Source of the DNA: Flavobacteriales bacterium
Lineage (GTDB): Bacteria > Bacteroidota > Bacteroidia > Flavobacteriales_D > Sanyastnellaceae
Direction: 5' to 3'
NCBI GenBank assembly: GCA_044371535.1
Contig: JBILTL010000001.1
Span: forward strand, 9,668-73,667
Length of the DNA: 64,000 nucleotides
The notes beneath the pieces are model-generated. The model worked only from the letters and a program-made list of their open reading frames with translations, made no database searches and was not told the DNA's origin. The first letter of the stretch is position 1; every line of letters starts with the position of its first letter. The translations under genes and the position numbers were made by a program. This document shows positions 6,262 through 49,228 of this stretch, in pieces.

Positions 6262-6277
6262 TTTACACACTTTGTGT

Positions 6278-6343
6278 GATGACCCTGCGGGATGACCGCG
6301 GAGCGGATGACGCAACAAGGTTGCGATGACCAGGGAAGCTGGT
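6278..6343. repeat. GATGAC-word mini-hairpin array (4 units)
   Basis: GATGAC at 6278, 6291, 6306 and 6325, each followed by a short palindrome (cc-tgc-gg, cgc-gga-gcg, gcaac-aag-gttgc, accag-ggaag-ctggt). Lies between the OMP stop and the tetR start. Confidence 0.8.
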
Positions 6344-8775: not shown

Positions 8776-8893
8776 ATCCGGTGGATCAATTGCTACGCAA
8801 TCAATCAACTTCGTTGATCAATACTACGTATCAATCACCTACGGTGATCAATTCTACGAATCAATCGCTGCGCGATCAATCAACTTCGTTGAT
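8776..8893. repeat. GATCAAT-word mini-hairpin array, one arm only (8 units, all TNC-type loops on + strand)
   Basis: atcc-ggt-ggat, attgc-tac-gcaat, atcaac-ttc-gttgat, atac-tac-gtat, atcacc-tac-ggtgat, attc-tac-gaat, atcgc-tgc-gcgat and atcaac-ttc-gttgat, joined by CA linkers. Confidence 0.9.
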
Positions 8894-9088
8894 TACTTCT
8901 TTCGACTTAAGAAAACTTCCAAAAAAGAGATATCCCAAAAATCCTCCGTAAGGAATGCTGATGTATGGATTGCTGCTAATCATACAGCCTCCAGAAGAAC
9001 AACCCACGAAGTAGTAATATGCCCAACCGGCAAAAGAACCAATAGCAATGGCTATGAATTCTTTTCGATATTTCTTAATGAAATTCAT
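8876..9088 (-). CDS. Small membrane protein, DUF6132-like
   Basis: Two TM segments and a VGCSSGGCMISSNP motif. ATGA start/stop overlap with the upstream DUF2892 gene. The last 5 codons and the stop lie inside the repeat array at 8776-8893. Confidence 0.6.
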   Translation of the reverse strand: MNFIKKYRKEFIAIAIGSFAGWAYYYFVGCSSGGCMISSNPYISIPYGGFLGYLFFGSFLKSKEVINEVD

Positions 9089-9288
9089 TTTTTCTCGCAC
9101 GTATTAATTCCAAAAGGCATATACAACGGACAAAAAGAAACAAGACTAGTCAATAAGAATATCGCACCAAAGACAAAAAGTGTGTTTCCTAAAAATCCTG
9201 AAACCGCATCGGTAAAAAACAGATACGCGAAAATCAGTGCTGCAACCACTCGCATTCCGCGATCAAAATTTCCCATGTTCTTTTTCAT
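9085..9288 (-). CDS. DUF2892 (YgaP-like) small membrane protein
   Basis: 67 aa with N-terminal GNFDRGMRVVAAL followed by two hydrophobic helices and CPLY, which is the DUF2892 signature. Confidence 0.7.
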   Translation of the reverse strand: MKKNMGNFDRGMRVVAALIFAYLFFTDAVSGFLGNTLFVFGAIFLLTSLVSFCPLYMPFGINTCEKK

Positions 9289-9352
9289 AGTATTATATTT
9301 TCTACGAAGGTGAGGGATTGTTGTGGGGTGGTTTGTAACTTATATCACCACG

Positions 9353-9494
9353 TTATCAATCCTTCGGATCAATCTGACTGCGTCAGATCAATACTCCGTA
9401 TCAATCACTTCGTGATAAACTGCATCCGCAGGATTGATTGCAACGCAATTGATCGCATAGCGATTGATCCGAAGGATTGATCACCGTAGGTGAT
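9353..9494. repeat. GATCAAT-word mini-hairpin array, two inverted arms (9 units)
   Basis: Left arm: atcc-ttc-ggat, atctgac-tgc-gtcagat, atac-tcc-gtat, atcac-ttc-gtgat (CA linkers). Centre: aaactgc. Right arm: atcc-gca-ggat, attgc-aac-gcaat, atcgc-ata-gcgat, atcc-gaa-ggat, atcacc-gta-ggtgat (TG linkers). Confidence 0.9.
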
Positions 9495-9500
9495 GGATTG

Positions 9501-10346
9501 TTATTTCAATTTTCTTACCAACGCCTGAAAATACTCCTTCGACCAAATGTCTAATTCCGATTGATCTGGAATAAAACGAATGACATCGTCTTTGACTTTG
9601 TTTATATCGACTGAATTGATTTTGTTATCTAACAAGAAAATTAATTGTGCTCTGCTAATGGTTGAATCTTGCCAATCGCCGCTTTCGATTGCGCGGTTAC
9701 AAAAGTGTTCTAAGTTTAGTTGCACTCCATTCTTAATATACCACGCTAAGTCATACCAGTCGCGGCCTTTGACTCTATCCTTCCATTTTCGAAAAAGCAA
9801 AGCATGCATTTTTCCAGCGAACAGATTGGGCAAAGTAAAGCAATTGACGTAAAAAGAATATGGCCTAGTTAAGAGGAGATTTTCAGTTTCAAAATGAAGG
9901 GGAGGATTCGTATCGACTTCAATTTTTATTTTTATCATCGGCTTCGTTGTTAAACGAATCTGAGGAATAGAACTTTCAAAAATTAATTCGCTCCACAGTG
10001 TGTCTGATTTTAGAAAAGCAGAATCTATTGACGAGCTTTTTGATTTTGTTTTGTGCTGAAGATTTACCTTTAGACCAAGAGCTTCAAACTCTTCAATGAC
10101 CGAATTGAAGTATGGCTCCAGATTGAATTCAAGGTTCTTCTCCAACAGAGAAAAATCAAGATCTTCCGAAAACCTTTCAAGATCATGAAATATGCGAAGC
10201 GCAGTGCCACCATAAAATGCAGCATGCTTAAAGAAATTAGCTCTGTATAATCCAGCAAGTGTTATCTCTTGCATAATCTCTCTAAGCGCCTGTTCGGTTT
10301 CTTGAACATTCTTTGGCTCGTAAGACTCAATCCATTGCTTTATCAT
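9501..10346 (-). CDS. abiEii: AbiEii/AbiGii-family nucleotidyltransferase toxin (type IV TA / abortive infection)
   Basis: 281 aa with a DUF1814-type NTase core (FYGGTALRIFHDLERFSEDLDF). ATGA overlap with the upstream AbiEi-like gene. Confidence 0.85.
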   Translation of the reverse strand: MIKQWIESYEPKNVQETEQALREIMQEITLAGLYRANFFKHAAFYGGTALRIFHDLERFSEDLDFSLLEKNLEFNLEPYFNSVIEEFEALGLKVNLQHKTKSKSSSIDSAFLKSDTLWSELIFESSIPQIRLTTKPMIKIKIEVDTNPPLHFETENLLLTRPYSFYVNCFTLPNLFAGKMHALLFRKWKDRVKGRDWYDLAWYIKNGVQLNLEHFCNRAIESGDWQDSTISRAQLIFLLDNKINSVDINKVKDDVIRFIPDQSELDIWSKEYFQALVRKLK

Positions 10347-10981
10347 AATTCTGAAATTGCTTCAATCAGTATTTTCAAACTATTCGCCTTTGGCGCTACT
10401 GACAGCCAATTCGACATTTCTTCTATATTCAACTCGCCTAATTTTTCTTGATCTATTCGTAAATCATCCAATAAATAGGATTGTGCTTGCTTCTTACTTC
10501 GAAGATTAATTCCAGCCGTGGTTACTATTTTGTCGCAAAGACTTTTCTCGGGACTAGCTATTAACACACGCTGTGTTTCTGTGAGAGCTACTGACTGAAT
10601 ACCCAAAGGATAATACGATTTCGGGAGATGCGAAAAACTAAATGTTCCTACTTCAATTGAGAAACTCTTCGACAGTCGCACTGTAACGCTAGTTGTTTCA
10701 AATACCCTTTCCGGAATGAATCCCCAATAAGATAGAGCCGAATCTATAGACACGTAACTCGGACCGTACAATTGATTGGCAATTAAAAACGGTTCAGGAA
10801 ATGTTGAGCTTACTTTTCTTGAGGTCATATAAAGCCCCTTTCTCAATTGAGAAAGATATCCCTGTTGGACAAGATCATTTATCTTGTCATATGGACGGCT
10901 ATAACCCCTAAGTATTCCCAGCAATACTTGCGTACCAAAGGGCTGGTCTTTGAATTTTAATAGCTCTAAAACAGGGTTCAT
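10343..10981 (-). CDS. abiEi: AbiEi-family antitoxin / transcriptional autoregulator
   Basis: 212 aa with an N-terminal wHTH-like region and the conserved block LRKGLYM...LIANQLYGPSYVSIDSALSYWGFIPERV typical of AbiEi_4. Translationally coupled to abiEii. Confidence 0.8.
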   Translation of the reverse strand: MNPVLELLKFKDQPFGTQVLLGILRGYSRPYDKINDLVQQGYLSQLRKGLYMTSRKVSSTFPEPFLIANQLYGPSYVSIDSALSYWGFIPERVFETTSVTVRLSKSFSIEVGTFSFSHLPKSYYPLGIQSVALTETQRVLIASPEKSLCDKIVTTAGINLRSKKQAQSYLLDDLRIDQEKLGELNIEEMSNWLSVAPKANSLKILIEAISEL

Positions 10982-10985
10982 TTGT

Positions 10986-10993
10986 CAAATTTA
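10986..10993 (-). promoter_or_regulatory. Candidate Bacteroidota -7 box (TAAATTTG) for abiEi-abiEii
   Basis: The minus strand reads TAAATTTG-acaa-ATG, matching TAnnTTTG. The spacing implies a leaderless or near-leaderless mRNA. Confidence 0.35.
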
Positions 10994-10998
10994 AGACA

Positions 10999-11023
10999 TT
11001 AATTCGGTATTTTTCCGAATTAA
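10999..11023. promoter_or_regulatory. 9-bp inverted repeat upstream of abiEi (candidate AbiEi operator)
   Basis: ttaattcgg-tattttt-ccgaattaa is a perfect 9-bp inverted repeat with a 7-nt spacer. Its near arm starts 18 nt upstream of the abiEi ATG. Confidence 0.4.
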
Positions 11024-11043
11024 GGCGTTATTTTTTACATTTA

Positions 11044-11133
11044 CTGCGGATGACACCGAAGGTGATGACCAGCGAAGCTGGATGACAATCTGCGATTGAT
11101 GACGATTTACAATCGATGACGAACAAGTTCGAT
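11044..11133. repeat. GATGAC-word mini-hairpin array (5 units)
   Basis: GATGAC at 11049, 11064, 11081, 11098 and 11115, each followed by a 4-bp stem and triloop: acc-gaa-ggt, cagc-gaa-gctg, aatc-tgc-gatt, gatt-tac-aatc, gaac-aag-ttc. Confidence 0.85.
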
Positions 11134-11197
11134 ACCGCCCTTATTTAAGAACCTCTATTCTAAATTCGCTTGAATATGTATCCGTCTAGAAAAGACA

Positions 11198-11380
11198 ATC
11201 GCTGAACGATCAATCTGACTTCGTCAGATCAATTCTACGAATCAATCGCTACGCGATCAATCACTTCGTGATAAACTGCATCCGCAGGATTGATTGCAAC
11301 ACAATTAATCGCGTAGCGATTGATCAACAAAGTTGATTGATCACGCAGTGATTGATCCGTAGGATTGATCGCTAAGCGAT
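11198..11380. repeat. GATCAAT-word mini-hairpin array, two inverted arms (about 12 units); homologous to 9353-9494
   Basis: Left arm: atctgac-ttc-gtcagat, attc-tac-gaat, atcgc-tac-gcgat, atcac-ttc-gtgat. Centre: aaactgc. Right arm: atcc-gca-ggat, atcgc-gta-gcgat, atcaac-aaa-gttgat, atcac-gca-gtgat, atcc-gta-ggat, atcgc-taa-gcgat. Confidence 0.9.
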
Positions 11381-11386
11381 TTAGGG

Positions 11387-13467: not shown

Positions 13468-14799
13468 CTAATTTCCGCTCGAATATTCCATTTCGGCCAT
13501 ATAACGGGCGTCGCGCATGATCATGGTATCGAGGGAAACCTTATTCACCTTGGCTTTTTCCTCAATGGCCTTCACCCAATTTGGGTCAGAAAGGATATTA
13601 TTCTTGAATTTTTGCACGCGCAATTCAAACGAATCTATGTTCTCTTCCAAAACGAAATACTTGTAGGCGTTCGAAATAAATCCCCATCCCAACTTGTCCA
13701 TGTTACACTCGGTTGCCATGATGAAGACAACGTCTGACTTCTCAATCTCTTTCATTTGTGAAAGGGGATCGGAGTTCGTGGTGATGCCTGAAGGTCGCTG
13801 ATGCAACTGCTTGTTGTAGAAGTAAAAATTCAATTCAGAAAAAATATCCGGCGCCCATGGCAATTGCATCAAATTGAAGAAGTAACTGTCGGAAATCACT
13901 GCTACTTTGGGTTGAATGCCTTTGTTTCCAAAGTCTACGCTGTACTTCATGTTGACTCCCACCCGTGGATAAGCCATCGGAAGAACATCTATTGGCCAAT
14001 ACAAATTCATTCCCAAGCCAATGTCGTCGTCTACACTTTCCATGGTTGTTTGAAGCGGTAAATTCTTCTTGTCCCACCCAAACTCGTTCATCTCCTTTCC
14101 GAAAAGATTCATACAATAATTCACCAACGAATCGGCTGCTAAAGTTGCACCATATTGACTCCAATGAATACCAGTCTTTGGGAAAAGTGGTGCAGGCGTT
14201 TTGCCCTTCATTTCACGAAACCATTTTCCGAAATCGACGTGCTGAATGCCTTTTGCCTTCAATCCTTTCTGGTATTCCGAATAATAACTTCTGTCGGAAA
14301 CCACAGGAAATTCATCGGGAATGTATTCCGGATAAAACGAAGCCTTCCCGGGATTTAATACTACCACTAGCTCAATGCCTTTTTCTTTCAATTTATTTTG
14401 AAGGGCATTCAGCATAACCAAGTTCGAATCGACTTTCGATTGACTCACCTCTTCCGCACCGCGAAAGGCATTGATGTATTTGATCTCGTACAAATAATCT
14501 TCTTTCCCGATAATAACTCCGTTGGCCTTTGCCTTTCCGAAAAGTGAATATGCAATCTGATTGTGAATGCGAACGGCAGTATTGCGAAATCCGAATTGTT
14601 CGTTGATGTAGTTGTTCCTGTTTTCTTGGTAGGTCCCGCTGAACCACGACTCTGCAGTCAATGAATCTTTTGCTGTTGGAACAATGGAACCGAAAAGATA
14701 TCCCACTTCAACAAACGGTTTCACCATTTGAATCATGGGAAGAAACATTCCGAGGAGAACGATCGAGAACAAGACGGTATGAAAGCGGTTGTTCTTCAT
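13468..14799 (-). CDS. Hypothetical AlgX/AlgJ/DltD-like partner of the MBOAT acyltransferase
   Basis: 443 aa with one N-terminal TM and a GIHWSQYGA motif resembling AlgX/AlgJ SGNH-like domains. TAATG stop/start overlap with the MBOAT gene. Confidence 0.5.
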   Translation of the reverse strand: MKNNRFHTVLFSIVLLGMFLPMIQMVKPFVEVGYLFGSIVPTAKDSLTAESWFSGTYQENRNNYINEQFGFRNTAVRIHNQIAYSLFGKAKANGVIIGKEDYLYEIKYINAFRGAEEVSQSKVDSNLVMLNALQNKLKEKGIELVVVLNPGKASFYPEYIPDEFPVVSDRSYYSEYQKGLKAKGIQHVDFGKWFREMKGKTPAPLFPKTGIHWSQYGATLAADSLVNYCMNLFGKEMNEFGWDKKNLPLQTTMESVDDDIGLGMNLYWPIDVLPMAYPRVGVNMKYSVDFGNKGIQPKVAVISDSYFFNLMQLPWAPDIFSELNFYFYNKQLHQRPSGITTNSDPLSQMKEIEKSDVVFIMATECNMDKLGWGFISNAYKYFVLEENIDSFELRVQKFKNNILSDPNWVKAIEEKAKVNKVSLDTMIMRDARYMAEMEYSSGN

Positions 14800-16250
14800 T
14801 AGAATCGGAAATAAATGAAGGGGTTAAATCCGCTTGCCGTGATGTAGCTCAACGACAAAACAAATAGGGCTGCTGAAACTACTGTCAATGCTAGATGTCC
14901 AGCGTTTCCTATACTTCGCTGACCGAATACGGCATCTTGAAATTTCGTTGTTTTTGGAAGGAGTAAGAAGAATGAAAACAAAGTCGCCAATGCGGCTATG
15001 AGCATCCATTCGGAATCAATTTTCACATCAACCGTTCCATGCGCAGAGAACATGGCTCCCACATATCCCCAAGCCAAGTGCAAATCTTCCACACGGAAAA
15101 ACACCCACCCGATTACTACCACGACAAACGTGAACGCTACGCGTGTTAGTTTACCGATGGAACCAAACCAACGAATTAAAAATGCACGTTCTAAAACCAA
15201 GAACAGTCCGTGCCAAGCGCCCCAGATGATGTAGTTCCAAGAAGCTCCGTGCCACAATCCGGAAAGCAAAAACACTAACCATAGATTGAAATACAAACGT
15301 CCTTTGCTCACCTTGTTTCCACCTAAAGGAATGTAGAGGTAATTGCGCATCCAGCTACCCAAGGTCATATGCCAACGTCTCCAGAATTCAGTAATGTTTT
15401 GCGAGATATACGGATTGTTGAAGTTCTCTGGGAATTTGAAACCGATCATTCTTCCTATACCAATCGCCATGTCGGAATAACCGCTGAAGTCGAAATAAAT
15501 TTGAAGCGTGTATGAAATCGCCGCCAGCCAAGCGGTTCCTGCGGCCAAGGTATTCGGATCAAGCGCACCAGCGCCTGTTTCGGCATTGCCATAGATGCTG
15601 TCTGCAAAGGCCGCCAGCGCATTGGCTATTAGAACCTTTTTTCCTAACCCGATACAAAATCTATAAAAACCGAGCAAACGTTCGGTACTGTTTTCTGTCT
15701 TCGAACGATCGGGAATTTGATCGGCAATGTCGTGGTACCTGATTATAGGACCTGCAATTAATTTCGGAAAAAGAATGATGTACAACTGATAGTCCCAGAA
15801 ATTTTTCAAAGGCTTGTGCACCCTTCTGAACACATCTACCACGTAGGTCAGCGTTTCAAACGTGTAAAATGAAATACCTATCGGAAGCACCAACTTCGTC
15901 CACGGGATGCTGCTTTCCAACCCCACTCCCTTCATGGCCACATTCACATTCTCGATGAAGAAGTTCATGTATTTGAAATACACCAACAGACCCAAGTTCA
16001 TGATAACCGAAAAAACCAAAAGTGCTTTTCTTTCTGTCTCGTTCTTGCTTCGATCCATTCTTCCCACCAAGAAAAAATCGATGAGGGTAGTTCCAATAAT
16101 GACGAAGATAAATTTCGGCGCACCCCATGCGTAGAAGAACACGCTTGACAGCAATAAGAAGGCATTCTTGAATTTCTTCGGACATATCCAATACAGCAGC
16201 AGAAAGGCTGGGAGGAAGATGGTTAGGAAGATTGCTGAGGAAAAAACCAT
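14799..16250 (-). CDS. MBOAT-family O-acyltransferase (AlgI/DltB-like)
   Basis: Polytopic membrane protein with FWRRWHMTLGSWMRNYLYIPLGG and LWHGASWNYIIWG motifs. Start moved to ATG 16250 (MVFSSAIFL). Confidence 0.9.
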   Translation of the reverse strand: MVFSSAIFLTIFLPAFLLLYWICPKKFKNAFLLLSSVFFYAWGAPKFIFVIIGTTLIDFFLVGRMDRSKNETERKALLVFSVIMNLGLLVYFKYMNFFIENVNVAMKGVGLESSIPWTKLVLPIGISFYTFETLTYVVDVFRRVHKPLKNFWDYQLYIILFPKLIAGPIIRYHDIADQIPDRSKTENSTERLLGFYRFCIGLGKKVLIANALAAFADSIYGNAETGAGALDPNTLAAGTAWLAAISYTLQIYFDFSGYSDMAIGIGRMIGFKFPENFNNPYISQNITEFWRRWHMTLGSWMRNYLYIPLGGNKVSKGRLYFNLWLVFLLSGLWHGASWNYIIWGAWHGLFLVLERAFLIRWFGSIGKLTRVAFTFVVVVIGWVFFRVEDLHLAWGYVGAMFSAHGTVDVKIDSEWMLIAALATLFSFFLLLPKTTKFQDAVFGQRSIGNAGHLALTVVSAALFVLSLSYITASGFNPFIYFRF

Positions 16251-16254
16251 CTCA

Positions 16255-16262
16255 CAAATATA
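16255..16262 (-). promoter_or_regulatory. Candidate -7 box (TATATTTG) for the MBOAT operon
   Basis: The minus strand reads TATATTTG-tgag-ATG, the same geometry as at abiEi. Confidence 0.3.
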
Positions 16263-16313
16263 AGGTGCTTTGAAAGTTAAGAGAAGGGAAGAAAAGTTAA
16301 GAAAGGGGAACAA

Positions 16314-16448
16314 ATCACTTCGTGATCAATTCTTCGAATCAATCGCGTTGCGATCAATCGTTCCGATAAATCCGTAGGATTGATCACCGTAGGTGATTGA
16401 TTGCACAGCAATTGATCTGACAACGTCAGATTGATCACCGCAGGTGAT
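16314..16448. repeat. GATCAAT-word mini-hairpin array, two inverted arms (9 units), in a divergent promoter region
   Basis: Left arm: atcac-ttc-gtgat, attc-ttc-gaat, atcgc-gtt-gcgat, atcg-ttc-cgat. Right arm: atcc-gta-ggat, atcacc-gta-ggtgat, attgc-aca-gcaat, atctgac-aac-gtcagat, atcacc-gca-ggtgat. Confidence 0.9.
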
Positions 16449-16456
16449 TATATTTG
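16449..16456 (+). promoter_or_regulatory. Candidate -7 box (TATATTTG) for pgm
   Basis: The TAnnTTTG match starts 1 nt after the last hairpin of the 16314-16448 array and ends 16 nt before the pgm ATG. Confidence 0.35.
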
Positions 16457-16472: not shown

Positions 16473-18293
16473 ATGACCCCCTTAGAATCCGCAAAAGAAA
16501 AAGCTGCACTTTGGAAAACATACGACCTAGACGCAGAGACACGTGTAGAGATTGAACGCATGGAGCGTGAAGACGAGAAGTTGTTTATTGATTCGTTTTA
16601 TTCCGATTTGGAATTTGGGACAGGAGGATTGCGCGGCGTCATGGGTGTGGGAAGCATGCGCATGAACAAGTATACCGTGGGTATGGCTACGCAGGGATTG
16701 GCGAATTATATTTTGAAACACCATGCGCAAGTGGGTGGAGAGGGTTCGGTGGCGATCGCGTATGATTCGAGAAATAACTCGAGTTACTTCGCGCAAATTG
16801 CTGCAGATATTTTAGCTGAAAACGGCATACGCGTTTATCTCTTTTCTGAATTGCGTCCGACTCCGTTGTTGTCGTTTACCGTTCGTGAATTGAAATGCAC
16901 TGCGGGTATTGTTATAACCGCTTCACACAATCCGAAAGAGTACAACGGGTATAAGGTTTATTGGAGCGATGGTGGGCAGATATTGCCGCCGAATGACAAA
17001 GGGATAATCACCGAGGTTAAGATTGCCATGACTGGCAAAGATTCTTCGAAAGATGCAAATGCTTTGCAAGATGTTGCACAAGATGCACCTTCGGTGCAAG
17101 ATGCTACGCAAGATGCGATGCAAGATTCCTTCGGAAAGAGGGGAATGATAAACGAAGTGCCTCAGGCTGTTGAGGAAAAATATTTGGAATTGGTGCGCGG
17201 TCTTACCTTATCTGAAGAGGCAGTGAAGCAAGAGAAAGATATTTCCATTGTGTATACCTCTATACATGGTTCGGGGATAACGTTGGTGCCGAAGACGTTG
17301 TCTGCGTTGGGATTTTCGAATGTGAGTGTGGTGGAAGAGCAGGCGGTGCCCGATGGAAATTTCCCGACAGTGGAGTCTCCAAATCCGGAAGAGAAGTCAG
17401 CTATGAAAATGGCGTTGGAGTTGGGAGAGAAGGTGAATGCTGAATTGGTTTTGGGAACAGATCCAGATACCGATCGCGTGGGATTGGCGGTGAGAAATGA
17501 TCAGAATGAATTGGTATTGATCAATGGTAATCAAGCGGGAAGCTTGTTGGTGTATTATCGTTTGTTGGTCGGAAAGGAAAAAGGAAAATTACCTGAACAT
17601 CCGTTTATTGGAAAGACCATTGTTACCACTGAATTGATTGCGCGCATTGCGGAATCGTTCGGGGTGCCGTGTTACGACACGTTAACGGGATTCAAGTTTA
17701 TAGCGGGACTCATTAAAGAAAAAGAAGGGAAGGAAAATTTCGTAGCGGGAGGAGAAGAAAGCTACGGCTATTTAGTAAGTGATTTCGTTCGCGACAAGGA
17801 TGCGGCTTTGTCGGCGGTTCAGTTTGCAGAGATCGCAGCTTACGCGAAGAGCAAAGGAACATCGATATGGGGAATGTTGAAAGACCTTTACCTGCAACAC
17901 GGCGTGTTTCAGGAAGAGTTGGTAAGCATTACATTGAAGGGAATCGACGGTGTTGCGCAGATTCAAAGCATGATGTCGCGTCTTCGCACCACCCCTCCCA
18001 AAACCCTTGGCGGAGTAGCCCTTGCAGAATTGCACGATGTGAAAGCAGGCACCTGCAAAAACATGACTACCGGAGAAACTACGACACTCCCCTATCCAAG
18101 TTCAGACGTCTTGCAATTCATCTTAACCGACGGCAGCAAGATTAGCGCTCGCCCGAGTGGAACGGAACCGAAGATTAAGTTTTACTTTTCGCTTCGCAAG
18201 GAAGTATCTTCTGCTTCTGAGATTTCTGAAGCGCAATTTGAGCTTATGCAGAGAATTGAGCTAATTAAAAACGAAATGCTAAATGCGGGGTAA
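16473..18293 (+). CDS. pgm: Phosphoglucomutase/phosphomannomutase (alpha-D-phosphohexomutase) carrying an in-frame repeat insertion
   Basis: Active-site block GIVITASHNPKEYNGYKVYW, metal loop GTDPDTDR and sugar loop GGEESYG. Start at ATG 16473. Codons at 17037-17141 (KDSSKDANALQDVAQDAPSVQDATQDAMQDSFGKR) are encoded by a CAAGAT-type repeat array. Confidence 0.9.
   Translation: MTPLESAKEKAALWKTYDLDAETRVEIERMEREDEKLFIDSFYSDLEFGTGGLRGVMGVGSMRMNKYTVGMATQGLANYILKHHAQVGGEGSVAIAYDSRNNSSYFAQIAADILAENGIRVYLFSELRPTPLLSFTVRELKCTAGIVITASHNPKEYNGYKVYWSDGGQILPPNDKGIITEVKIAMTGKDSSKDANALQDVAQDAPSVQDATQDAMQDSFGKRGMINEVPQAVEEKYLELVRGLTLSEEAVKQEKDISIVYTSIHGSGITLVPKTLSALGFSNVSVVEEQAVPDGNFPTVESPNPEEKSAMKMALELGEKVNAELVLGTDPDTDRVGLAVRNDQNELVLINGNQAGSLLVYYRLLVGKEKGKLPEHPFIGKTIVTTELIARIAESFGVPCYDTLTGFKFIAGLIKEKEGKENFVAGGEESYGYLVSDFVRDKDAALSAVQFAEIAAYAKSKGTSIWGMLKDLYLQHGVFQEELVSITLKGIDGVAQIQSMMSRLRTTPPKTLGGVALAELHDVKAGTCKNMTTGETTTLPYPSSDVLQFILTDGSKISARPSGTEPKIKFYFSLRKEVSSASEISEAQFELMQRIELIKNEMLNAG
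17038..17138 (+). repeat. CAAGAT-word mini-hairpin array inserted in-frame inside pgm
   Basis: AAGAT recurs 7 times at spacings of 12, 18, 12, 18, 12 and 12 nt. Between them lie palindromes ttc-ttc-gaa, gcaaa-tgc-tttgc, gcacc-ttc-ggtgc, tgc-tac-gca and ttcc-ttc-ggaa. The word and grammar match the intergenic arrays at 28-49 kb. Confidence 0.85.
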
Positions 18294-18295
18294 TT

Positions 18296-18501
18296 CCACT
18301 ACGTGGGTAAATTAAAGTAAATAGCCTGCGGCTGTAATAAAGAGCAGTCGAGCTTACGACGCAGCGACTTAATTCAATTTACTGCGAAGCAATTTATCCT
18401 CCTTCAAATAAGTCCACTTGCGTGGGTAAATTGAAGTAAATAGCCTACGGCTGTAATTAAGTACAATCCAACTTACGGCGCAGCCACTTACTTTAACTTA
18501 C
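18296..18501. repeat. Two ~88-nt direct copies, start-to-start period 118 bp, built from short hairpins and TAA-rich words
   Basis: Copy 1 starts at 18296: ccactacgtgggtaaattaaagtaaatagcctgcggctgtaataaag... Copy 2 starts at 18414: ccacttgcgtgggtaaattgaagtaaatagcctacggctgtaattaag... Embedded hairpins are ccac-tac-gtgg and agcc-tgc-ggct. Lies between convergent pgm and rfbA. Confidence 0.85.
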
Positions 18502-18512
18502 ACCGAAGGTAT

Positions 18513-19373
18513 TTATTTCAATAGCCCCAAAAGATAGCCGCCGTACCCACTCTTCACCAACGGTTCCGCCAGTGCAATCAATTCCTCTTGATTGATATAC
18601 CCCATCCGATAAGCAATCTCTTCAATACACGAAATCTTTTGGCCTTGTCTTTGCTCCATAACCTGAACAAACTGTCCCGCCTGCATCAATGATGCAAATG
18701 TTCCAGTATCCAGCCAAGCAGTGCCGCGATTAAAGACAGTTACCGTGAGTTGTCCGCGTTTCAAGTATTCTTGATTCACATCGGTAATCTCGTATTCTCC
18801 GCGTGCAGAAGGTTTTAGATTTTTAGCAATTTCCACTACTGAATTGTCATAGAAATACAATCCAGGAACGGCATAATTGCTTTTCGGTTGTGAGGGTTTT
18901 TCTTCAATGGAAATGACTTTCCCTTCCGAATCGAATTCCACCACACCGTAGCGTTCTGGATCGTTCACGTGATAGGCAAATACTTTTCCGCCAACTACTT
19001 CGGTGCTTGCTTGTAATAATTTGCTGAGCCCACTCGCGTAAAAAATATTGTCCCCTAATATTAAAGCGACTTTTTCTTTTCCAATGAATTCTTCTCCAAT
19101 CACAAAAGCTTGCGCAAGTCCATTGGGTTCGGTTTGTTCAGCGTATTCGAAGGTGCAACCCAATTGAGATCCGTCTCCTAATAATTTTTGAAATCCGGGT
19201 AAATCGTGCGGCGTAGAAATAATCAAGATCTCACGAATACCCGCCAACATCAATACCGAAAGCGGATAGTAAATCATGGGCTTGTCGTACACCGGCATGA
19301 GCTGCTTGCTTACGGCCAAGGTTAACGGATGCAAGCGCGTTCCTGAACCACCCGCGAGAATTATTCCTTTCAT
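18513..19373 (-). CDS. rfbA: Glucose-1-phosphate thymidylyltransferase
   Basis: [18 protein letters not shown]...[17 protein letters not shown], the canonical RmlA sequence. 286 aa. Confidence 0.95.
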
Positions 19374-28209: not shown

Positions 28210-28250
28210 CTTACAAAGATAGTATTATTCACGGGGTGAAAGTTGCTAAA

Positions 28251-28352
28251 GCAAGGTTCTGCGAAAGGTGTGTTACAAGATTCTATCGAAAGATGTTTCA
28301 CAAGGTGCGGAGCAAGATTCTGCGAAAGATGTTTCACAAGGTGCTTCGCAAG
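28251..28352. repeat. CAAGAT/CAAGGT-word mini-hairpin array (one arm)
   Basis: gcaaggttctgcgaaaggtgtgttacaagattctatcgaaagatgtttcacaaggtgcggagcaagattctgcgaaagatgtttcacaaggtgcttcgcaagg. Lies between the neuB-like start and the DUF2480 stop. Confidence 0.85.
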
Positions 28353-28883: not shown

Positions 28884-29046
28884 GAAAGATTTTTCAAAAG
28901 ATGCTGAAGGCAAGATTCTGCGAAAGGTGTGTTTCAAGATGCCGGAGGCAAGATTCTGCGAAAGATGACAAGCAAGAAGCCTGCGGCTAGAAGCATACAC
29001 TTACGACGTATCTTTCAAGGAATCTTGTGAAACATCTTGCAAAGCT
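28884..29046. repeat. CAAGAT-word mini-hairpin array, two inverted arms
   Basis: The left arm uses AAGAT words (gatgccggaggcaagattctgcgaaagat). The centre is aagcc-tgc-ggct. The right arm uses ATCTT words (tatctttcaaggaatcttgtgaaacatcttgcaaag). Confidence 0.85.
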
Positions 29047-37449: not shown

Positions 37450-38365
37450 CATCGCTATCTCGCGCACAGACAGCATTGGCGATGTAATTGTGACATTGCC
37501 GTTGTGCGGTTTCATAAAAAAGTATTCCCCGAATACGCGCATTGTATTTATTGGAAGAAGCTATACACAGGCCATTGTAGAGGCTTGTCCGTTTGTTGAT
37601 GAATTCGTGAATTTCGATAAGCATGCAGAAACTTCTTTGAAGGTTGAAGCCTGCGTCTTCGCCTTTCCAGATGCGGAAGTCATGCAGTGGGTGAAGGCGC
37701 AAGGCGTTAAGAAACGCATTGCAACTGGAAGTAGAATAGCTTCTTGGAAATTCGCGAATGACCGTGTTTTCTTTTCAAGAAAGAATTCAGACTTGCACGA
37801 ATCGCAATTGAATTTTCATTTGCTTTATCCATTCGGTGTAAAGAACATTCCAACCCTCGAAGAAATTCGCGAATGGCATGTCTTAAAACCACAAGTGGCA
37901 AGCCCCATTCAACTCGAACCGAATAAACGTTCGGTTGTGTTCCACATGCTCAGTAAAGGCAGTGCTTTAAATTGGTCGTTGGAGCAATATCAAAAATTAG
38001 CATCACTTCTACCCGCATCAGAATTCAGCATATACATTACAGGGACCGTAGAAGAAGGCGTGCGCATTCGTCAGGGATTTCAATTCGATGAGCATATTGT
38101 AGATGTCAGTGGAAAGCTTTCCCTTCCACAATTAATAGCGTTTATCTCTTCTTGCGACATGCTAGTTGCCGCAAGCACTGGTCCGCTGCATATCGCTTCT
38201 GCTGTTGGTATTCACGCCATAGGTCTTTATCCGTCTAAACGCCCCATGCATCCAGGAAGATGGATGCCATTAGGAGGCAATGCGAGTTATTTGGAAGATG
38301 GAAATTCGGGGCAAAAAGAAAGCCTCGAGATTTCTCCCGAGGCTGTGCTGAAAAGGATCATATAG
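37424..38365 (+). CDS. Family 9 glycosyltransferase (heptosyltransferase-like)
   Basis: ISRTDSIGDVIVTLP N-terminus and STGPLHIASAVG C-terminal motif typical of GT9. 26-nt overlap with the upstream GT2 gene. Confidence 0.8.
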   Translation: MSTFAFPSSIAISRTDSIGDVIVTLPLCGFIKKYSPNTRIVFIGRSYTQAIVEACPFVDEFVNFDKHAETSLKVEACVFAFPDAEVMQWVKAQGVKKRIATGSRIASWKFANDRVFFSRKNSDLHESQLNFHLLYPFGVKNIPTLEEIREWHVLKPQVASPIQLEPNKRSVVFHMLSKGSALNWSLEQYQKLASLLPASEFSIYITGTVEEGVRIRQGFQFDEHIVDVSGKLSLPQLIAFISSCDMLVAASTGPLHIASAVGIHAIGLYPSKRPMHPGRWMPLGGNASYLEDGNSGQKESLEISPEAVLKRII

Positions 38366-40624: not shown

Positions 40625-40640
40625 GGAGGCAAATGTATAA

Positions 40641-40772
40641 CAAGATTCTTACGAAAGATGTTGCACAAGATGCTGAAGCAAGATTCTTACGAAAGATGTT
40701 GCACAAGATGCTGAAGCAAGATTCTTACGAAAGATGTTGCACAAGATGCTGAAGCAAGATTCTAGAGAAAGA
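40641..40772. repeat. CAAGAT-word array: three perfect 38-bp tandem copies plus a partial fourth
   Basis: caagattcttacgaaagatgttgcacaagatgctgaag starts at 40641, 40679 and 40717, with a partial copy from 40755. Each copy is three word-plus-hairpin units (ttc-ttac-gaa, tgt-tgc-aca, tgc-tgaa-gca). Confidence 0.95.
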
Positions 40773-40850
40773 TAATTCATCAGAACCTCTCTGTTAAAAA
40801 ACAATTATACCCAAGGAAATAAGAATGAAGAAAACTTGTTGATTTGTAAA

Positions 40851-41713: not shown

Positions 41714-41934
41714 AGATGCCGGAGGCAAGATTCTGACGAAAGATGTTTCACAAGATGCCGGAGGCAAGATTCTGACGAAAGATGTTTCACAAGATGCCGG
41801 AGGCAAGATACTTCGTAAGATTCTGACGAAAGATGCTACGCAAGCAGAGCGGCCTGGCCGTAGGCTTCTTTTGCAAAATCTTGTGAAACATCTTACAAAG
41901 TATCTTGCGATAAAATCTTGCAAAATCATTTGCA
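41714..41934. repeat. CAAGAT-word mini-hairpin array, two inverted arms (39-bp period in the left arm)
   Basis: agatgccggaggcaagattctgacgaaagatgtttcaca starts at 41714 and 41753, with a third copy from 41792 that diverges after agatgccggaggcaagat. The centre is ggcc-gta-ggcttctt. The right arm uses ATCTT words (aaatcttgtgaaacatcttacaaagtatcttgcgataaaatcttgcaaaatcatttgca). Confidence 0.9.
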
Positions 41935-48561: not shown

Positions 48562-48712
48562 GAAAGATACTTTGTAAGATGCTTCGCAAGATTCTGATGA
48601 AAGATACTCTGTAAGATGCTTCGCAAGATTCTATCGAAAGAAACTTCGTTAGTGTATCCACTAGCCGAAGGCTTCTTGTAAAACATCTTGTGAAACATCT
48701 TGCGAAGCATCT
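48562..48712. repeat. CAAGAT-word mini-hairpin array, two inverted arms (37-bp period in the left arm)
   Basis: aagatac(t/c)ttgtaagatgcttcgcaagattct repeats at 48564 and 48601. The centre is agcc-gaa-ggcttctt. The right arm is gtaaaacatcttgtgaaacatcttgcgaagcatctt. Confidence 0.9.
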
Positions 48713-48724
48713 TACCTTAGCCTT

Positions 48725-49228
48725 ATGAGTGGGGAGAGTTTTTTATACATACGTATTGTTGGAATAGCTCTTTTGCTTTCAACTGTTTCGTGCGCAACGG
48801 ATCAGGAGAAGGCACGCGACTACAACAACAAAATAACCGTTGAATTAGAGACCTGTGGTGTAGCTATTTTTCAGTTGGAAGAACAATTGGGTCAGCCGCA
48901 AAATCTGAATGAATTTTACTCGAAAGCTGAATCAACATTAAACACAGCAAAAGAGAATTTAACTGAAATTGGAAACTTCAAGGAAGACACACTTCTTGTT
49001 AATCCTGCACTCCGAACCGTAGAAAAATTTCAGGAAATTCTTTCAACGTATTACAAGCCACTTTGCAATTTGCATCAACTTCCACAAGAACAAATATCCT
49101 TCGCAACAACCGATAGCTGCAGGGTTCTGCGCATGTTCATTCAAAACGAATCGGTCTTCACACAACAAGATTTCGAAAACGCGCAACAGTCGTTTGCCGA
49201 TAAGTACAAGCTTGATTTAGCGGAATAA
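48725..49228 (+). CDS. Hypothetical lipoprotein
   Basis: 167 aa with lipobox LLSTVSC and a helical, charged mature part. No family recognised. Confidence 0.5.
   Translation: MSGESFLYIRIVGIALLLSTVSCATDQEKARDYNNKITVELETCGVAIFQLEEQLGQPQNLNEFYSKAESTLNTAKENLTEIGNFKEDTLLVNPALRTVEKFQEILSTYYKPLCNLHQLPQEQISFATTDSCRVLRMFIQNESVFTQQDFENAQQSFADKYKLDLAE

Follow-up and report, generated by a model that had tools for sequence, protein, structure and literature searches.

The locus and its array

Within the 64-kb stretch of Flavobacteriales DNA analysed here, referred to below as the window, the MBOAT operon and pgm are transcribed divergently, and the spacer between them is filled by an array of nine perfect palindromes with stems of 4–7 bp and loops of 3 nt, as can be read directly from the sequence (Table 1). 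CA linkers go with four of the units and TG with the other five. After 1000 dinucleotide shuffles the mean number of units was 0.86 and the maximum six. TAnnTTTG is the −7 consensus of Bacteroidetes promoters, and there is one such box on each side of the array. The initial annotation, made from the letters alone, was right that the array fills this spacer and reaches the pgm promoter, though the single nucleotide that it placed between the last hairpin and the −7 box is not there: the hairpin ends at 16448 and TATATTTG begins at 16449, a gap of 0 nt.

Table 1. Features of the MBOAT/pgm spacer and of the other arrays in the window (a dot stands for a feature without strand)
Feature	Coordinates	Strand	Remarks
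MBOAT −7 box (TATATTTG on the minus strand)	16255..16262	-	4 nt from MBOAT ATG (16250..16248), 51 nt from array
Purine-rich 20-nt x2 module (AAAGTTAAGAAAAGGGAACA)	16273..16313	+	adjoins left arm
Two-armed mini-hairpin array, family A (linker AT-CA-AT / AT-TG-AT)	16314..16448	.	nine units, 135 bp; counterparts in L126, L244, L220
Left (L-type) arm, CA linkers	16314..16367	.	minus strand bears C(GNA)G version
Left-arm unit ATCAC(TTC)GTGAT	16314..16326		
Left-arm unit ATTC(TTC)GAAT	16329..16339		
Left-arm unit ATCGC(GTT)GCGAT	16342..16354		
Left-arm unit ATCG(TTC)CGAT	16357..16367		
Centre junction AA, point of polarity flip	16368..16369	.	TA in many other copies
Right (R-type) arm, TG linkers	16370..16448	.	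plus strand bears C(GNA)G version
Right-arm unit ATCC(GTA)GGAT	16370..16380		
Right-arm unit ATCACC(GTA)GGTGAT	16383..16397		
Right-arm unit ATTGC(ACA)GCAAT	16400..16412		
Right-arm unit ATCTGAC(AAC)GTCAGAT	16415..16431		
Right-arm unit ATCACC(GCA)GGTGAT	16434..16448		
pgm −7 box TATATTTG, Bacteroidota TAnnTTTG type	16449..16456	+	adjoins array directly; pgm ATG at 16473
GATGAC-linker (A') single arm	6262..6343	.	immediately past TonB-dependent receptor stop codon
Family A single L-type arm, 8 units	8776..8894	.	
Family A two-arm array, centre AAACTGC ('type ii')	9359..9494	.	end 6 nt from AbiEii stop codon
GATGAC-linker (A') single arm	11046..11131	.	
Family A two-arm array, type ii centre	11198..11380	.	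end 6 nt from amidohydrolase stop codon
AAGAT-linker (B) single L-type arm	28250..28350	.	after stop codon of DUF2480 gene
AAGAT/ATCTT (B) two-arm array	28884..29046	.	
B single arm	40640..40773	.	three-unit 38-nt block x3.2, 100% identity
B two-arm array	41714..41934	.	begins 6 nt past a stop codon
B two-arm array	48562..48712	.	begins at base next to DUF2490 stop codon; ends 13 nt before next start codon

The array is not alone. In all, the 64 kb contain upwards of 60 hairpin units distributed over about 12 arrays, every one of them intergenic, and the units are both shorter and more perfect than those of classical REPs. Direct reading bears out the two-arm layout that had been described for the spacer array and for five others, and arrays of a single arm exist as well, five of them listed in Table 1. 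The families are grouped locally, with A and A' at 6–16 kb and B at 28–49 kb. The centres of the two type ii arrays share 41 identical nt. The single arm at 8776–8894 matches the left arm of the one array present at the same place in a relative (L131), and so suggests that a small-ORF segment has split an array here, or that an array has recombined about it.

Polarity and pairing

Loops in the spacer array are TNC in three of the four left-arm units and GNA in three of the five right-arm units, with the opposite polarity in none. For the three ATCAAT-type arrays of the window together, TNC makes up 11 of 13 left-arm loops with no GNA, and GNA 10 of 17 right-arm loops with no TNC. It had been proposed that the right arm is the left-arm type of unit inverted, that units are polar and that the C(GNA)G version switches strand at the array centre; a census of loop type by arm was named as the place where the idea could fail. 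Run on ~1 Mb of related metagenome DNA, that census has the bias. Among 70 non-identical family A arrays of related contigs, loops flanked by CA are TNC in 132 of 199 cases and GNA in six, while those flanked by TG are GNA in 103 of 177 and TNC in two. The order of the arms is CA then TG in 28 arrays and the reverse in none; over the four linker families (their 'feet' being ATCAAT, GATGAC, AAGAT and GAATG), six hybrids included, it is constant 42 to 0. Within an arm the units are direct repeats whose orientation does not alternate, and it is the two arms that are inverted with respect to each other. The proposals about arm, polarity and strand switch are thereby supported. The rule of loop type stands for family A, but loops of the GATGAC family are mixed (44 TNC, 31 GNA), and there are minorities of TNT/ANA or GTT/AAC.

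The units themselves are tightly specified. A C-G pair closes the loop in 318 of 403 units, in keeping with the initial claim for most of them, and the loop has 3 nt in 378 of the 403. Loop positions 1 and 3 are fixed (G..A or T..C), the middle base is free to vary, and roughly two units in three have GNA on one of their strands. Stems are perfect Watson–Crick palindromes in 356 of 379 units (94%). If only one strand were read as RNA, the rare mismatches might betray which, but among the single mismatches there is no bias of G-T against A-C (4 versus 5), and both strands are equally constrained.

Conservation, dispersal and turnover

How well is such a small thing kept? In the relatives with an orthologous array (L126, L244 and L220), 131–133 of the 135 bases are identical to those of the window, and in L126 and L244 not one of the 108 stem or linker positions has changed, the differences being confined to loops. 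The genes flanking it are ~9% diverged between the lineages, third codon positions of pgm are 79% identical to those of the same relatives (21% differ), and the non-array spacer next to it has indels. By these comparisons the array is under purifying constraint.

Conservation at one site goes with dispersal over many. The same order of units recurs in 20 copies with different flanks and in both orientations; no target-site duplication or common flank is visible among the 20, the fuzziness of the element ends weakening the test for duplication. Two-arm arrays are in co-directional gaps in 14 cases, convergent gaps in seven and divergent gaps in six. Where an array end faces a stop codon, the two lie within 20 nt of each other in half of the cases, with overlap in some. 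Single-arm arrays point either way with respect to the gene upstream, with no preference. There is turnover too: blocks of three units are duplicated in L220, L136, L123 and at 40641–40763 of the window, the inner units of the array in L166 are inverted relative to MBOAT, one family is exchanged for another at the same site, hybrids occur, and arrays bracket variable gene cassettes. Fold-back (inverted duplication) was considered as the origin of the right arm and dismissed, since neither arm mirrors the other and hybrids combine linkers of more than one family.

Wider scans were less productive. The pattern ATCAATN{7,13}ATCAATN{7,13}ATCAAT, applied to a genome collection, was too loose and matched simple tandem repeats, the only true array among the matches listed being that of a Flavobacteriales MAG (L018). 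In scans with ATCAATCGCNNNGCGATCAAT, isolated matches in coding sequence, not arrays, made up about two thirds of what was matched in metagenomes and all eight matches in viruses, so that the eight viral matches provide no evidence of carriage by phage.

Relation to known repeats

With what should the arrays be compared? The initial comparison with REPIN/BIME organisation is still the best available, and what the arrays most resemble are the proteobacterial REP/BIME repeats. Like these they are extragenic palindromes in many copies, with several families per genome; they are clustered, have two inverted arms in a fixed arrangement that recalls the inverted doublets of REPs, lie after stop codons and between operons, are reiterated as blocks and flank polysaccharide gene clusters. 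For REP, BIME and REPIN, roles have been proposed in supercoiling, termination and mRNA stability. The differences are those of scale and of order: units are 11–17 nt as against 20–40 nt, stems are perfect, loops are of 3 nt and GNA or TNC, and many different stems go with one linker; units run head to tail within an arm, with a single polarity flip, whereas REP/BIME clusters alternate in orientation; and the GT[AG]G (or CGTC) tag of REPs is absent, GTAG occurring only within loops (C-GTA-G).

In Bacteroidetes the REPs associated with RAYT subclass 2.6 have perfect stems, 3-nt loops (for the most part TCC, TCT, TGC or TGT) and a short conserved 5' foot (PMC6006769). Phylum, stem perfection and T-N-C/T loops are thus shared with the arrays (Quentin et al. 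2018, PMC6006769), but those REPs have single stems of 8–10 bp and a GCTRG-type foot and lie beside a RAYT gene, in contrast to stems of 4–7 bp, 4–13 units and other feet here. Such arrays are absent from the tables of that work. At a different scale, there are the d(GCGNAGC) mini-hairpins of phage N4 virion-RNAP promoters, the complementary-strand origin of phage G4 and ssiA of RSF1010, with two G-C pairs, C-G closing, a GNA triloop with a sheared G-A pair and stems of 5–7 bp. Those are single, in phage or plasmid DNA, and each is read by a dedicated polymerase or primase, whereas the arrays have 8–13 tandem units, lie between genes of the chromosome and bear GNA on one strand in the one arm and on the other strand in the other.

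Bidirectional intrinsic terminators, too, give the same reading from either strand, with an A-rich 5' side and a T-rich 3' side, and they occupy convergent gaps and places directly behind stop codons, but the arrays have many tiny hairpins in place of a long G+C stem, have no U tract and occur in divergent spacers as well. MITEs resemble them in being dispersed in non-coding DNA, of 130–220 bp, with two inverted arms and in both orientations; array arms, though, are alike only in architecture and linker, and arms of different families can be combined. Identity with MITEs was rejected, unit order not being mirrored between the arms, so that there are no matching terminal inverted repeats. A CRISPR array, in which repeats of 24–48 bp alternate with unique spacers about as long, was likewise rejected: the constant word is of 6 nt and the 'spacers' are palindromes of 5–13 nt from a small shared vocabulary. 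The STRR heptamer TAACTGA forms intergenic arrays in cyanobacteria, Beggiatoaceae and some Bacteroidetes (PMC4679880); these resemble the present arrays in being abundant, intergenic and built on a short constant word, and in their occurrence in Bacteroidetes, but they are plain direct repeats that lack palindromic spacers and mirror arms, and are judged unrelated. The arrays are a previously undescribed type of strongly conserved intergenic repeat.

Proposed hairpins in DNA

The reading tentatively preferred here, to which we would give somewhat less than even chances, is that the spacer array belongs to a set of dispersed copies of a modular extragenic repeat, similar to REP/BIME, in a lineage of uncultured freshwater Bacteroidota, and that the working form of this repeat is DNA hairpins. 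The kinship of its units with the d(GCGAAGC)-type mini-hairpin, seen at the outset, is literal: stems ATCGC and ATTGC give the heptamer GCGNAGC, and ATCC and ATCACC give CCGNAGG, in many units. Among all 64 triloops only GNA forms mini-hairpins, with a Tm of 70–76 °C in DNA, and with a GAAA loop d(GCGAAAGC) melts at 76.5 °C as against 39 °C for its RNA form r(GCGAAAGC) (PMC13037366). The array sequence has the GNA triloop, the closing C-G and the second G-C pair that define the motif, and a corresponding stability can be predicted from that literature. In phage N4, promoter hairpins with 5–7 bp and a 3-nt loop are extruded in vivo and when the superhelical density is −0.035, provided that the closing pair is C:G and that the loop has both its 5'G and its 3'A (PMC4496689). 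By analogy, the conserved features of the arrays match those that decide DNA hairpin stability and supercoil-driven extrusion in N4.

What might then happen? The module is a perfect palindrome of 4–7 bp round an asymmetric triloop, C-G-closed G-N-A on one strand and T-N-C on the other, with a short polar linker after each; modules set head to tail make an arm, and two arms always meet in one relative orientation such that each strand has the version with A-rich linkers in its 5' half and the GNA version in its 3' half. Under negative superhelical stress, or on opening by replication, repair or polymerases, modules could snap into hairpins or cruciforms, so that arrays may serve to punctuate, structurally and topologically, the non-coding gaps that separate transcription units. 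They could also be substrates on which duplication, inversion and recombination act, and be spread and reshuffled in this way. It is possible, if rather unlikely, that they are chains of supercoil-extrudable mini-cruciforms acting as topological boundaries or sensors between transcription units and as recombination sites for the gain, loss and flipping of variable cassettes, their polarity dictated by the DNA-specific stability of the GNA strand.

The folding prediction suggested initially, when carried out, did not bring out an advantage of the GNA strand: nearest-neighbour DNA energies are −26.3 and −25.7 kcal/mol, i.e., equal for the two strands with standard parameters, and the advantage of GNA is one taken from published melting data. 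In the single-strand folds predicted, complementary linkers also bring the two arms into pairing with each other, so units may not fold independently, and with 4-bp stems separated by 2-bp linkers it is sterically unlikely that neighbouring units extrude together. A cruciform, moreover, leaves the fixed arm order unexplained, as the strand that bears GNA should not matter. Another point against the reading is that the searches described below revealed no Y1/HUH transposase in the window or in ~1 Mb of array-bearing loci. The single arm order, 42 of 42, is a clean rule; polymerases stalling on templates with GNA hairpins might account for it, as might an enzyme that reads single-strand hairpins.

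Other readings

Proximity to stop codons fits a role at RNA 3' ends as well as it fits DNA hairpins. Could the arrays be orientation-independent, bidirectional modules of transcript ends, i.e., terminators, insulators or 3'-end stabilisers in the classical role of REPs? A transcript from either side would meet the hairpins with A-rich linkers first and then those whose linkers are U-richer. Besides the crowding of array ends near stops described above, arrays fill whole convergent gaps in L137, L138, L168 and L242, and in the window they follow five stop codons by 0–7 nt (6343/6349, 9494/9501, 11380/11387, 41708/41714 and 48561/48562). In each of the four linker families the arms are ordered so that either strand is A-rich towards its 5' end and T-rich towards its 3' end, the same polarity as in an intrinsic terminator working in both directions. 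Canonical sites of hairpin plus T run are at chance level, 65 against ~61 expected in 60 kb, with no excess over shuffles and one convincing site (38344..38321); this too counts for the model, and pairing that is Watson–Crick only is expected also if both senses of RNA must fold. Against this, linkers hold only 2–3 T and there is no U tract, a simple scan having revealed no T run after array units, with only the last unit together with the −7 box scoring, by way of the promoter's TATTTGTTT. The conserved G-N-A and C-G features stabilise DNA exceptionally and not RNA. Arrays are found where no transcript should arrive, as in the divergent MBOAT/pgm spacer and at 40640–40773; the 13 nt between the array end at 48712 and the start codon at 48725 leave no room for a promoter if the array terminates; and a preferred sense relative to the upstream gene is missing from single-arm arrays. 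In favour of DNA hairpins, Rfam had no match at the gathering threshold in the window, L121, L123 or L126, the only hit being a chance miRNA match with E = 0.49. Overall the transcript-end role is a candidate, but an unlikely one.

That the arrays are selfish REPIN-like DNA with no host function, single units or complete two-arm elements being copied as single-strand hairpins by a single-copy Y1 HUH transposase (RAYT-like, of subclass 2.6), is also unlikely, and distinctly so. Conservation would then reflect recognition by the enzyme and continual re-copying. The dispersal of an identical unit order over different flanks in both orientations is what copying would give, as are the co-existence of several families, each with its own 'feet', and their local clustering; the perfect stem, 3-nt T-N-C/T loop and 5' foot are in the style of subclass 2.6, and tandem reiteration of REPs, like their presence on the flanks of polysaccharide gene clusters, is documented (PMC3733652). 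But neither the window nor the other array-bearing loci contained a RAYT or an IS200-like ORF by the searches made: Pfam scans detected no Y1/HUH transposase among the 49 window ORFs, and neither a regular expression for HUH and Y motifs nor phmmer with E. coli TnpA-REP (the query verified against 4ER8) revealed a RAYT-like ORF there or in the ~1 Mb of array-bearing loci, which is weak evidence as RAYTs, flanked by their repeats in a REPtron, are single copy per genome. The invariance of all 108 stem and linker positions beside genes ~9% diverged is hard to explain without selection, the GTAG-type tag is absent, and no REP with demonstrated processing is nearly as short as these units.

It is improbable that the words GATCAATC and GATTGATC are duplex iterons, recognised by a DNA-binding protein or by some methylation-dependent system, with the palindromes incidental. 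Each does contain GATC, often as TGATCA, so that GATC is at almost every family A junction; the linker is invariant, the period is regular at 13–17 bp and two opposed groups of sites recall the layouts of iterons or partition sites. Yet the architecture is the same in the GATGAC, AAGAT and GAATG families, which have no GATC, the spacers are not incidental, 94% of them being perfect palindromes with constrained loops, and the period is out of step with the helical repeat.

The pgm −7 box and 5' UTR up to the ATG are 24/24 identical in L126, L244 and L220, and are kept also in L123–L125, whose array belongs to another family; in close relatives the same site has another linker family or a hybrid array with the promoter unchanged, so this specific array is not required for the promoter. 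Throughout the census TAnnTTTG lies within 40 nt outward of six of 120 array ends, four of the six being the MBOAT/pgm locus in relatives, and adjacency to a −7 box is not general to the array family. Hence it is highly improbable that, as first supposed, the array is part of the divergent promoters with GNA hairpins borne by outward transcripts or unwound non-template strands: outward-reading strands are indeed the GNA strands by geometry and the junction with the pgm box is kept in relatives, but the array is upstream of both −7 boxes, and thus absent from the pgm and MBOAT mRNAs and from the open complexes, and arrays are present in convergent and co-directional gaps too. With the DNA-hairpin reading, the array could still render the pgm promoter sensitive to supercoiling.

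Implications

To our knowledge the d(GCGNAGC) motif has so far been described only in phages and plasmids, in a small number of origins and promoters. Should the DNA-hairpin reading be correct, the mini-hairpin would gain a natural chromosomal role, and about half or more of the non-coding DNA of the window would consist of arrays of the most stable DNA hairpin known. An abundant group of uncultured freshwater Bacteroidota would carry them under selection stronger than that on synonymous sites, and the REP/BIME idea would extend to a new phylum-level setting with a module much smaller and more regular. There would also be a simple system in which to ask whether short cruciforms form in bacterial chromosomes, how they affect supercoiling and neighbouring promoters, and how repeats drive the turnover of gene cassettes.

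A smaller matter is the purine-rich module next to the left arm, between it and the MBOAT promoter. Its array-near part is kept in L244 and L220, 12 nt exactly and ~30 nt with one mismatch. A similar module is present beside arrays in other flanks (L137, L172 and L221).

A palindrome chain between MBOAT and pgm

Read directly, the array at 16314-16448, located between the MBOAT gene and pgm, is a run of nine perfect palindromes with stems of 4-7 bp and centres of 3 nt, as against a mean of 0.86 units and a maximum of 6 in 1000 dinucleotide-preserving shuffles. Its left arm is ATCAC(TTC)GTGAT-ca-ATTC(TTC)GAAT-ca-ATCGC(GTT)GCGAT-ca-ATCG(TTC)CGAT, and after a central aa the right arm continues as ATCC(GTA)GGAT-tg-ATCACC(GTA)GGTGAT-tg-ATTGC(ACA)GCAAT-tg-ATCTGAC(AAC)GTCAGAT-tg-ATCACC(GCA)GGTGAT. 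As its last hairpin adjoins the pgm -7 box and a second box is present on the MBOAT side, the array is upstream of both. The closeness of the latter box to the MBOAT ATG (16248-16262, minus strand) suggests that the MBOAT mRNA would be leaderless or near-leaderless. A purine-rich 20-nt module, present twice (AAAGTTAAGAAAAGGGAACA), adjoins the array at 16273-16313 and may be a further type of repeat module; similar modules are beside arrays in three contigs (L137, L172, L221) whose flanks have no match to the window's MBOAT or pgm.

Features of the window with their coordinates
Feature	Position	Strand	Remark
MBOAT gene	14799..16250	minus	PF03062
pgm	16473..18293	plus	PGM_PMM I-III
pgm -7 box, TATATTTG	starts 16449	plus	base directly after last hairpin
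MBOAT -7 box, second TATATTTG	16262..16255	minus	4 nt from MBOAT ATG
GATGAC-linker arrays	6262-6343 and 11046-11131		further family
Two small membrane ORFs	9085..9288 and 8876..9100	minus	

Polarity and dispersal

The stems being palindromic, orientation can be read from the loop and the linker only. Related DNA was fetched with the pattern ATCAATCGCNNNGCGATCAAT, the loop being left unspecified, and the sample also took in orthologous loci reached via pgm homologues. Among the resulting 70 non-identical arrays of the ATCAAT family a switch from CA to TG linkers occurs in 28 and the opposite switch in none; CA-flanked loops are TNC in 132 of 199 cases and GNA in 6, and TG-flanked loops GNA in 103 of 177 and TNC in 2. 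The initial annotation had described just this, TNC loops to the left and GNA loops to the right, and the observation stands confirmed: it is supported by the census which the annotation had named as a possible refutation, with the qualification that loop polarity, though pronounced among ATCAAT and AAGAT arrays, is weak among GATGAC arrays (44 TNC, 31 GNA). Of 403 units, 318 are closed by a C-G pair and 378 have a loop of 3 nt. Four unrelated linker families are involved (ATCAAT, GATGAC, AAGAT and GAATG), the complement of each being in the opposite arm, and arm order is identical at 42/42 junctions, even including six hybrids with arms from different families. GAATG linkers, which provide the left arms of hybrids in other contigs, also join a hairpin array at 3800-3910 of L018 (Flavobacteriales MAG CANIBZ010000054.1; units GCCC(GAA)GGGC and similar), near an ATCAAT-type arm.

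A two-arm plan is likewise seen in the five further arrays that the initial annotation lists, and single arms are also present in the window. The unit order ATTC-ATCGC-ATCG / ATCC-ATCACC-ATTGC-ATCTGAC turns up between 20 different sets of flanks, and a second type, with AAACTGC at its centre, at 9359-9494, 11198-11380 and in L131, L182 and L243, which rules out chance or a locus-specific oddity. Two-arm arrays have co-directional (14), convergent (7) and divergent (6) settings. Of the array ends facing a stop codon half are at most 20 nt from it, and some arrays include it; a TAnnTTTG box is within 40 nt of just 6/120 array ends, 4 of the 6 being the same pgm site in relatives. By our own tally arrays total ~1.7 kb, which is about half, if not more, of the non-coding DNA in the window, and neighbouring intergenic regions of one genome tend to share one family. 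In the Pfam scan all 49 ORFs have the appearance of normal cellular genes, for efflux, polysaccharide synthesis, the suf operon and other functions, together with an AbiE toxin-antitoxin pair, with no transposase or recombinase among them. The array is not an annotated RNA, as Rfam has no match to the window or to three related loci.

Constraint and turnover

The array at the pgm site is common to the window and three relatives (L126, L244, L220), with identity at 131-133 of 135 bases. In L126 and L244 all differences are in loops, stems and linkers being unchanged; L220 has a three-unit duplication and one stem mismatch. Over its first 540 nt pgm has 90-91% identity, with no more than 77-79% at third codon positions, and indels occur in the spacer outside the array. 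The comparison indicates strong constraint on pairing and linkers, and near-neutral change of the middle loop base. Other relatives at similar distance retain this -7 box and 5′ UTR downstream of another kind of array: a two-arm GATGAC array in L123-L125, a hybrid in L121; L166 has its inner units in inverted orientation with respect to MBOAT. Upstream of pgm L121 (9640-9850) and L126 (3450-3640) have a common extra element with strong hairpins (GAGCTCGTTTATCGAGC, GGCATTCGAAATGCC, CCCCCAGCTTCACTGGGGG), absent from the window and without Rfam match.

In relatives an array alone lies between the TonB-dependent receptor and the amidohydrolase. The same gap in the window (8809-11386) holds two small membrane ORFs and an AbiEii/AbiEi pair, and arrays border every piece. 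In L131 AbiE is present but the small ORFs are missing, and the one array there corresponds to the window's arm at 8776 fused with the right part of 9359-9494; arrays thus act as points of recombination and turnover. The receptor and amidohydrolase genes are adjacent in several of the relatives compared (L121, L123, L131, L182, L243), and L243 has other small ORFs there.

DNA or RNA hairpins

Perfect Watson-Crick palindromes make up 356 of 379 linker-delimited units, and among the 19 single mismatches G-T (4) is no commoner than A-C (5), so both strands are constrained alike. Many units are literally GCGNAGC or CCGNAGG. Conservation falls on the C-G closing pair and on the loop G and A, with the middle base free, which agrees with published findings on DNA: out of the 64 possible triloops GNA alone forms the mini-hairpin (Tm 70-76 °C), and for a related GAAA-loop mini-hairpin the RNA, r(GCGAAAGC), melts at 39 °C and the DNA at 76.5 °C (PMC13037366). 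In phage N4 promoters, extrusion of hairpins of 5-7 bp with 3-nt loops takes place at superhelical density -0.035 as well as in vivo, and it needs the closing C:G pair and the loop 5′G and 3′A (PMC4496689). Under standard energy models the two DNA strands fold at -26.3 and -25.7 kcal/mol (z = -3.7 and -3.0), and the models predict competing arm-arm pairing via the complementary linkers; they do not capture the GNA-specific stability of DNA hairpins. Given the equal constraint on both strands and the match to the DNA literature, we favour a DNA-level hairpin or cruciform element, which would be extruded in vivo.

The strongest rival is a bidirectional role at transcript ends, exerted by RNA. 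In its favour, arrays follow stop codons and fill convergent gaps, their arm order is A-rich 5′ and T-rich 3′, and terminator-like sites in 60 kb show no excess over shuffle expectation. However, the arrays have no U tract, their conserved loop features are DNA-specific, they also occur in divergent spacers, and one stops 13 nt short of a start codon. The single convincing canonical intrinsic terminator in the 60 kb, at 38321-38344 (minus strand, after a glucosaminidase gene), has a 10-bp stem followed by TTCTTTTT. An iteron array bound by protein as duplex is less likely, as is a purely selfish RAYT-driven element; a weak search (by motif, and by phmmer with E. coli TnpA-REP, a query checked against 4ER8) found no RAYT in the window or any fetched locus. 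The initial interpretation is supported in part; its specific idea, that outward transcripts carry GNA hairpins, fails on geometry, given the place of the array relative to the -7 boxes.

Relation to REP elements

The nearest kind is REP/BIME/REPIN, with which the arrays share their extragenic and palindromic nature, the presence of several families per genome, clustering, placement after stop codons and block reiteration; their two inverted arms recall the inverted doublets of that kind. 'Atypical' REPs of the Bacteroidetes-specific RAYT subclass 2.6 have perfect stems, 3-nt loops (TCC, TCT or TGC) and a 5′ foot (PMC6006769). However, the arrays lack the GT[AG]G tag and their units are direct within arms, whereas REP units alternate. 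With these defining features missing, no RAYT found in the weak search above, and no description of such arrays found in the literature searched, we regard them as a variant of the REP-like kind outside the REP family itself. A REP/BIME-like dispersed repeat working as DNA hairpins is the best explanation, though held tentatively and with a little less than even confidence.

Other repeats

At 18291-18516 the space between pgm and the NTP-transferase gene convergent with it is taken up by a 119-nt unit, present 1.9 times (81% identity); the unit is rich in hairpins of the C(TNC)G / C(GNA)G type and appears to be another repeat family. At 40641-40763 a 38-nt block of three units is present 3.2 times, and its 100% identity points to very recent amplification. 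Within pgm itself, whose homologues are 578-647 aa long, a tandem repeat of 12/30 nt at 17037-17126 is in frame and encodes ...QDATQDANALQDVAQDAPSVQDATQDAMQD; it is made of CAAGATG words resembling AAGAT-family linkers, as though coding sequence had absorbed an array-like repeat.
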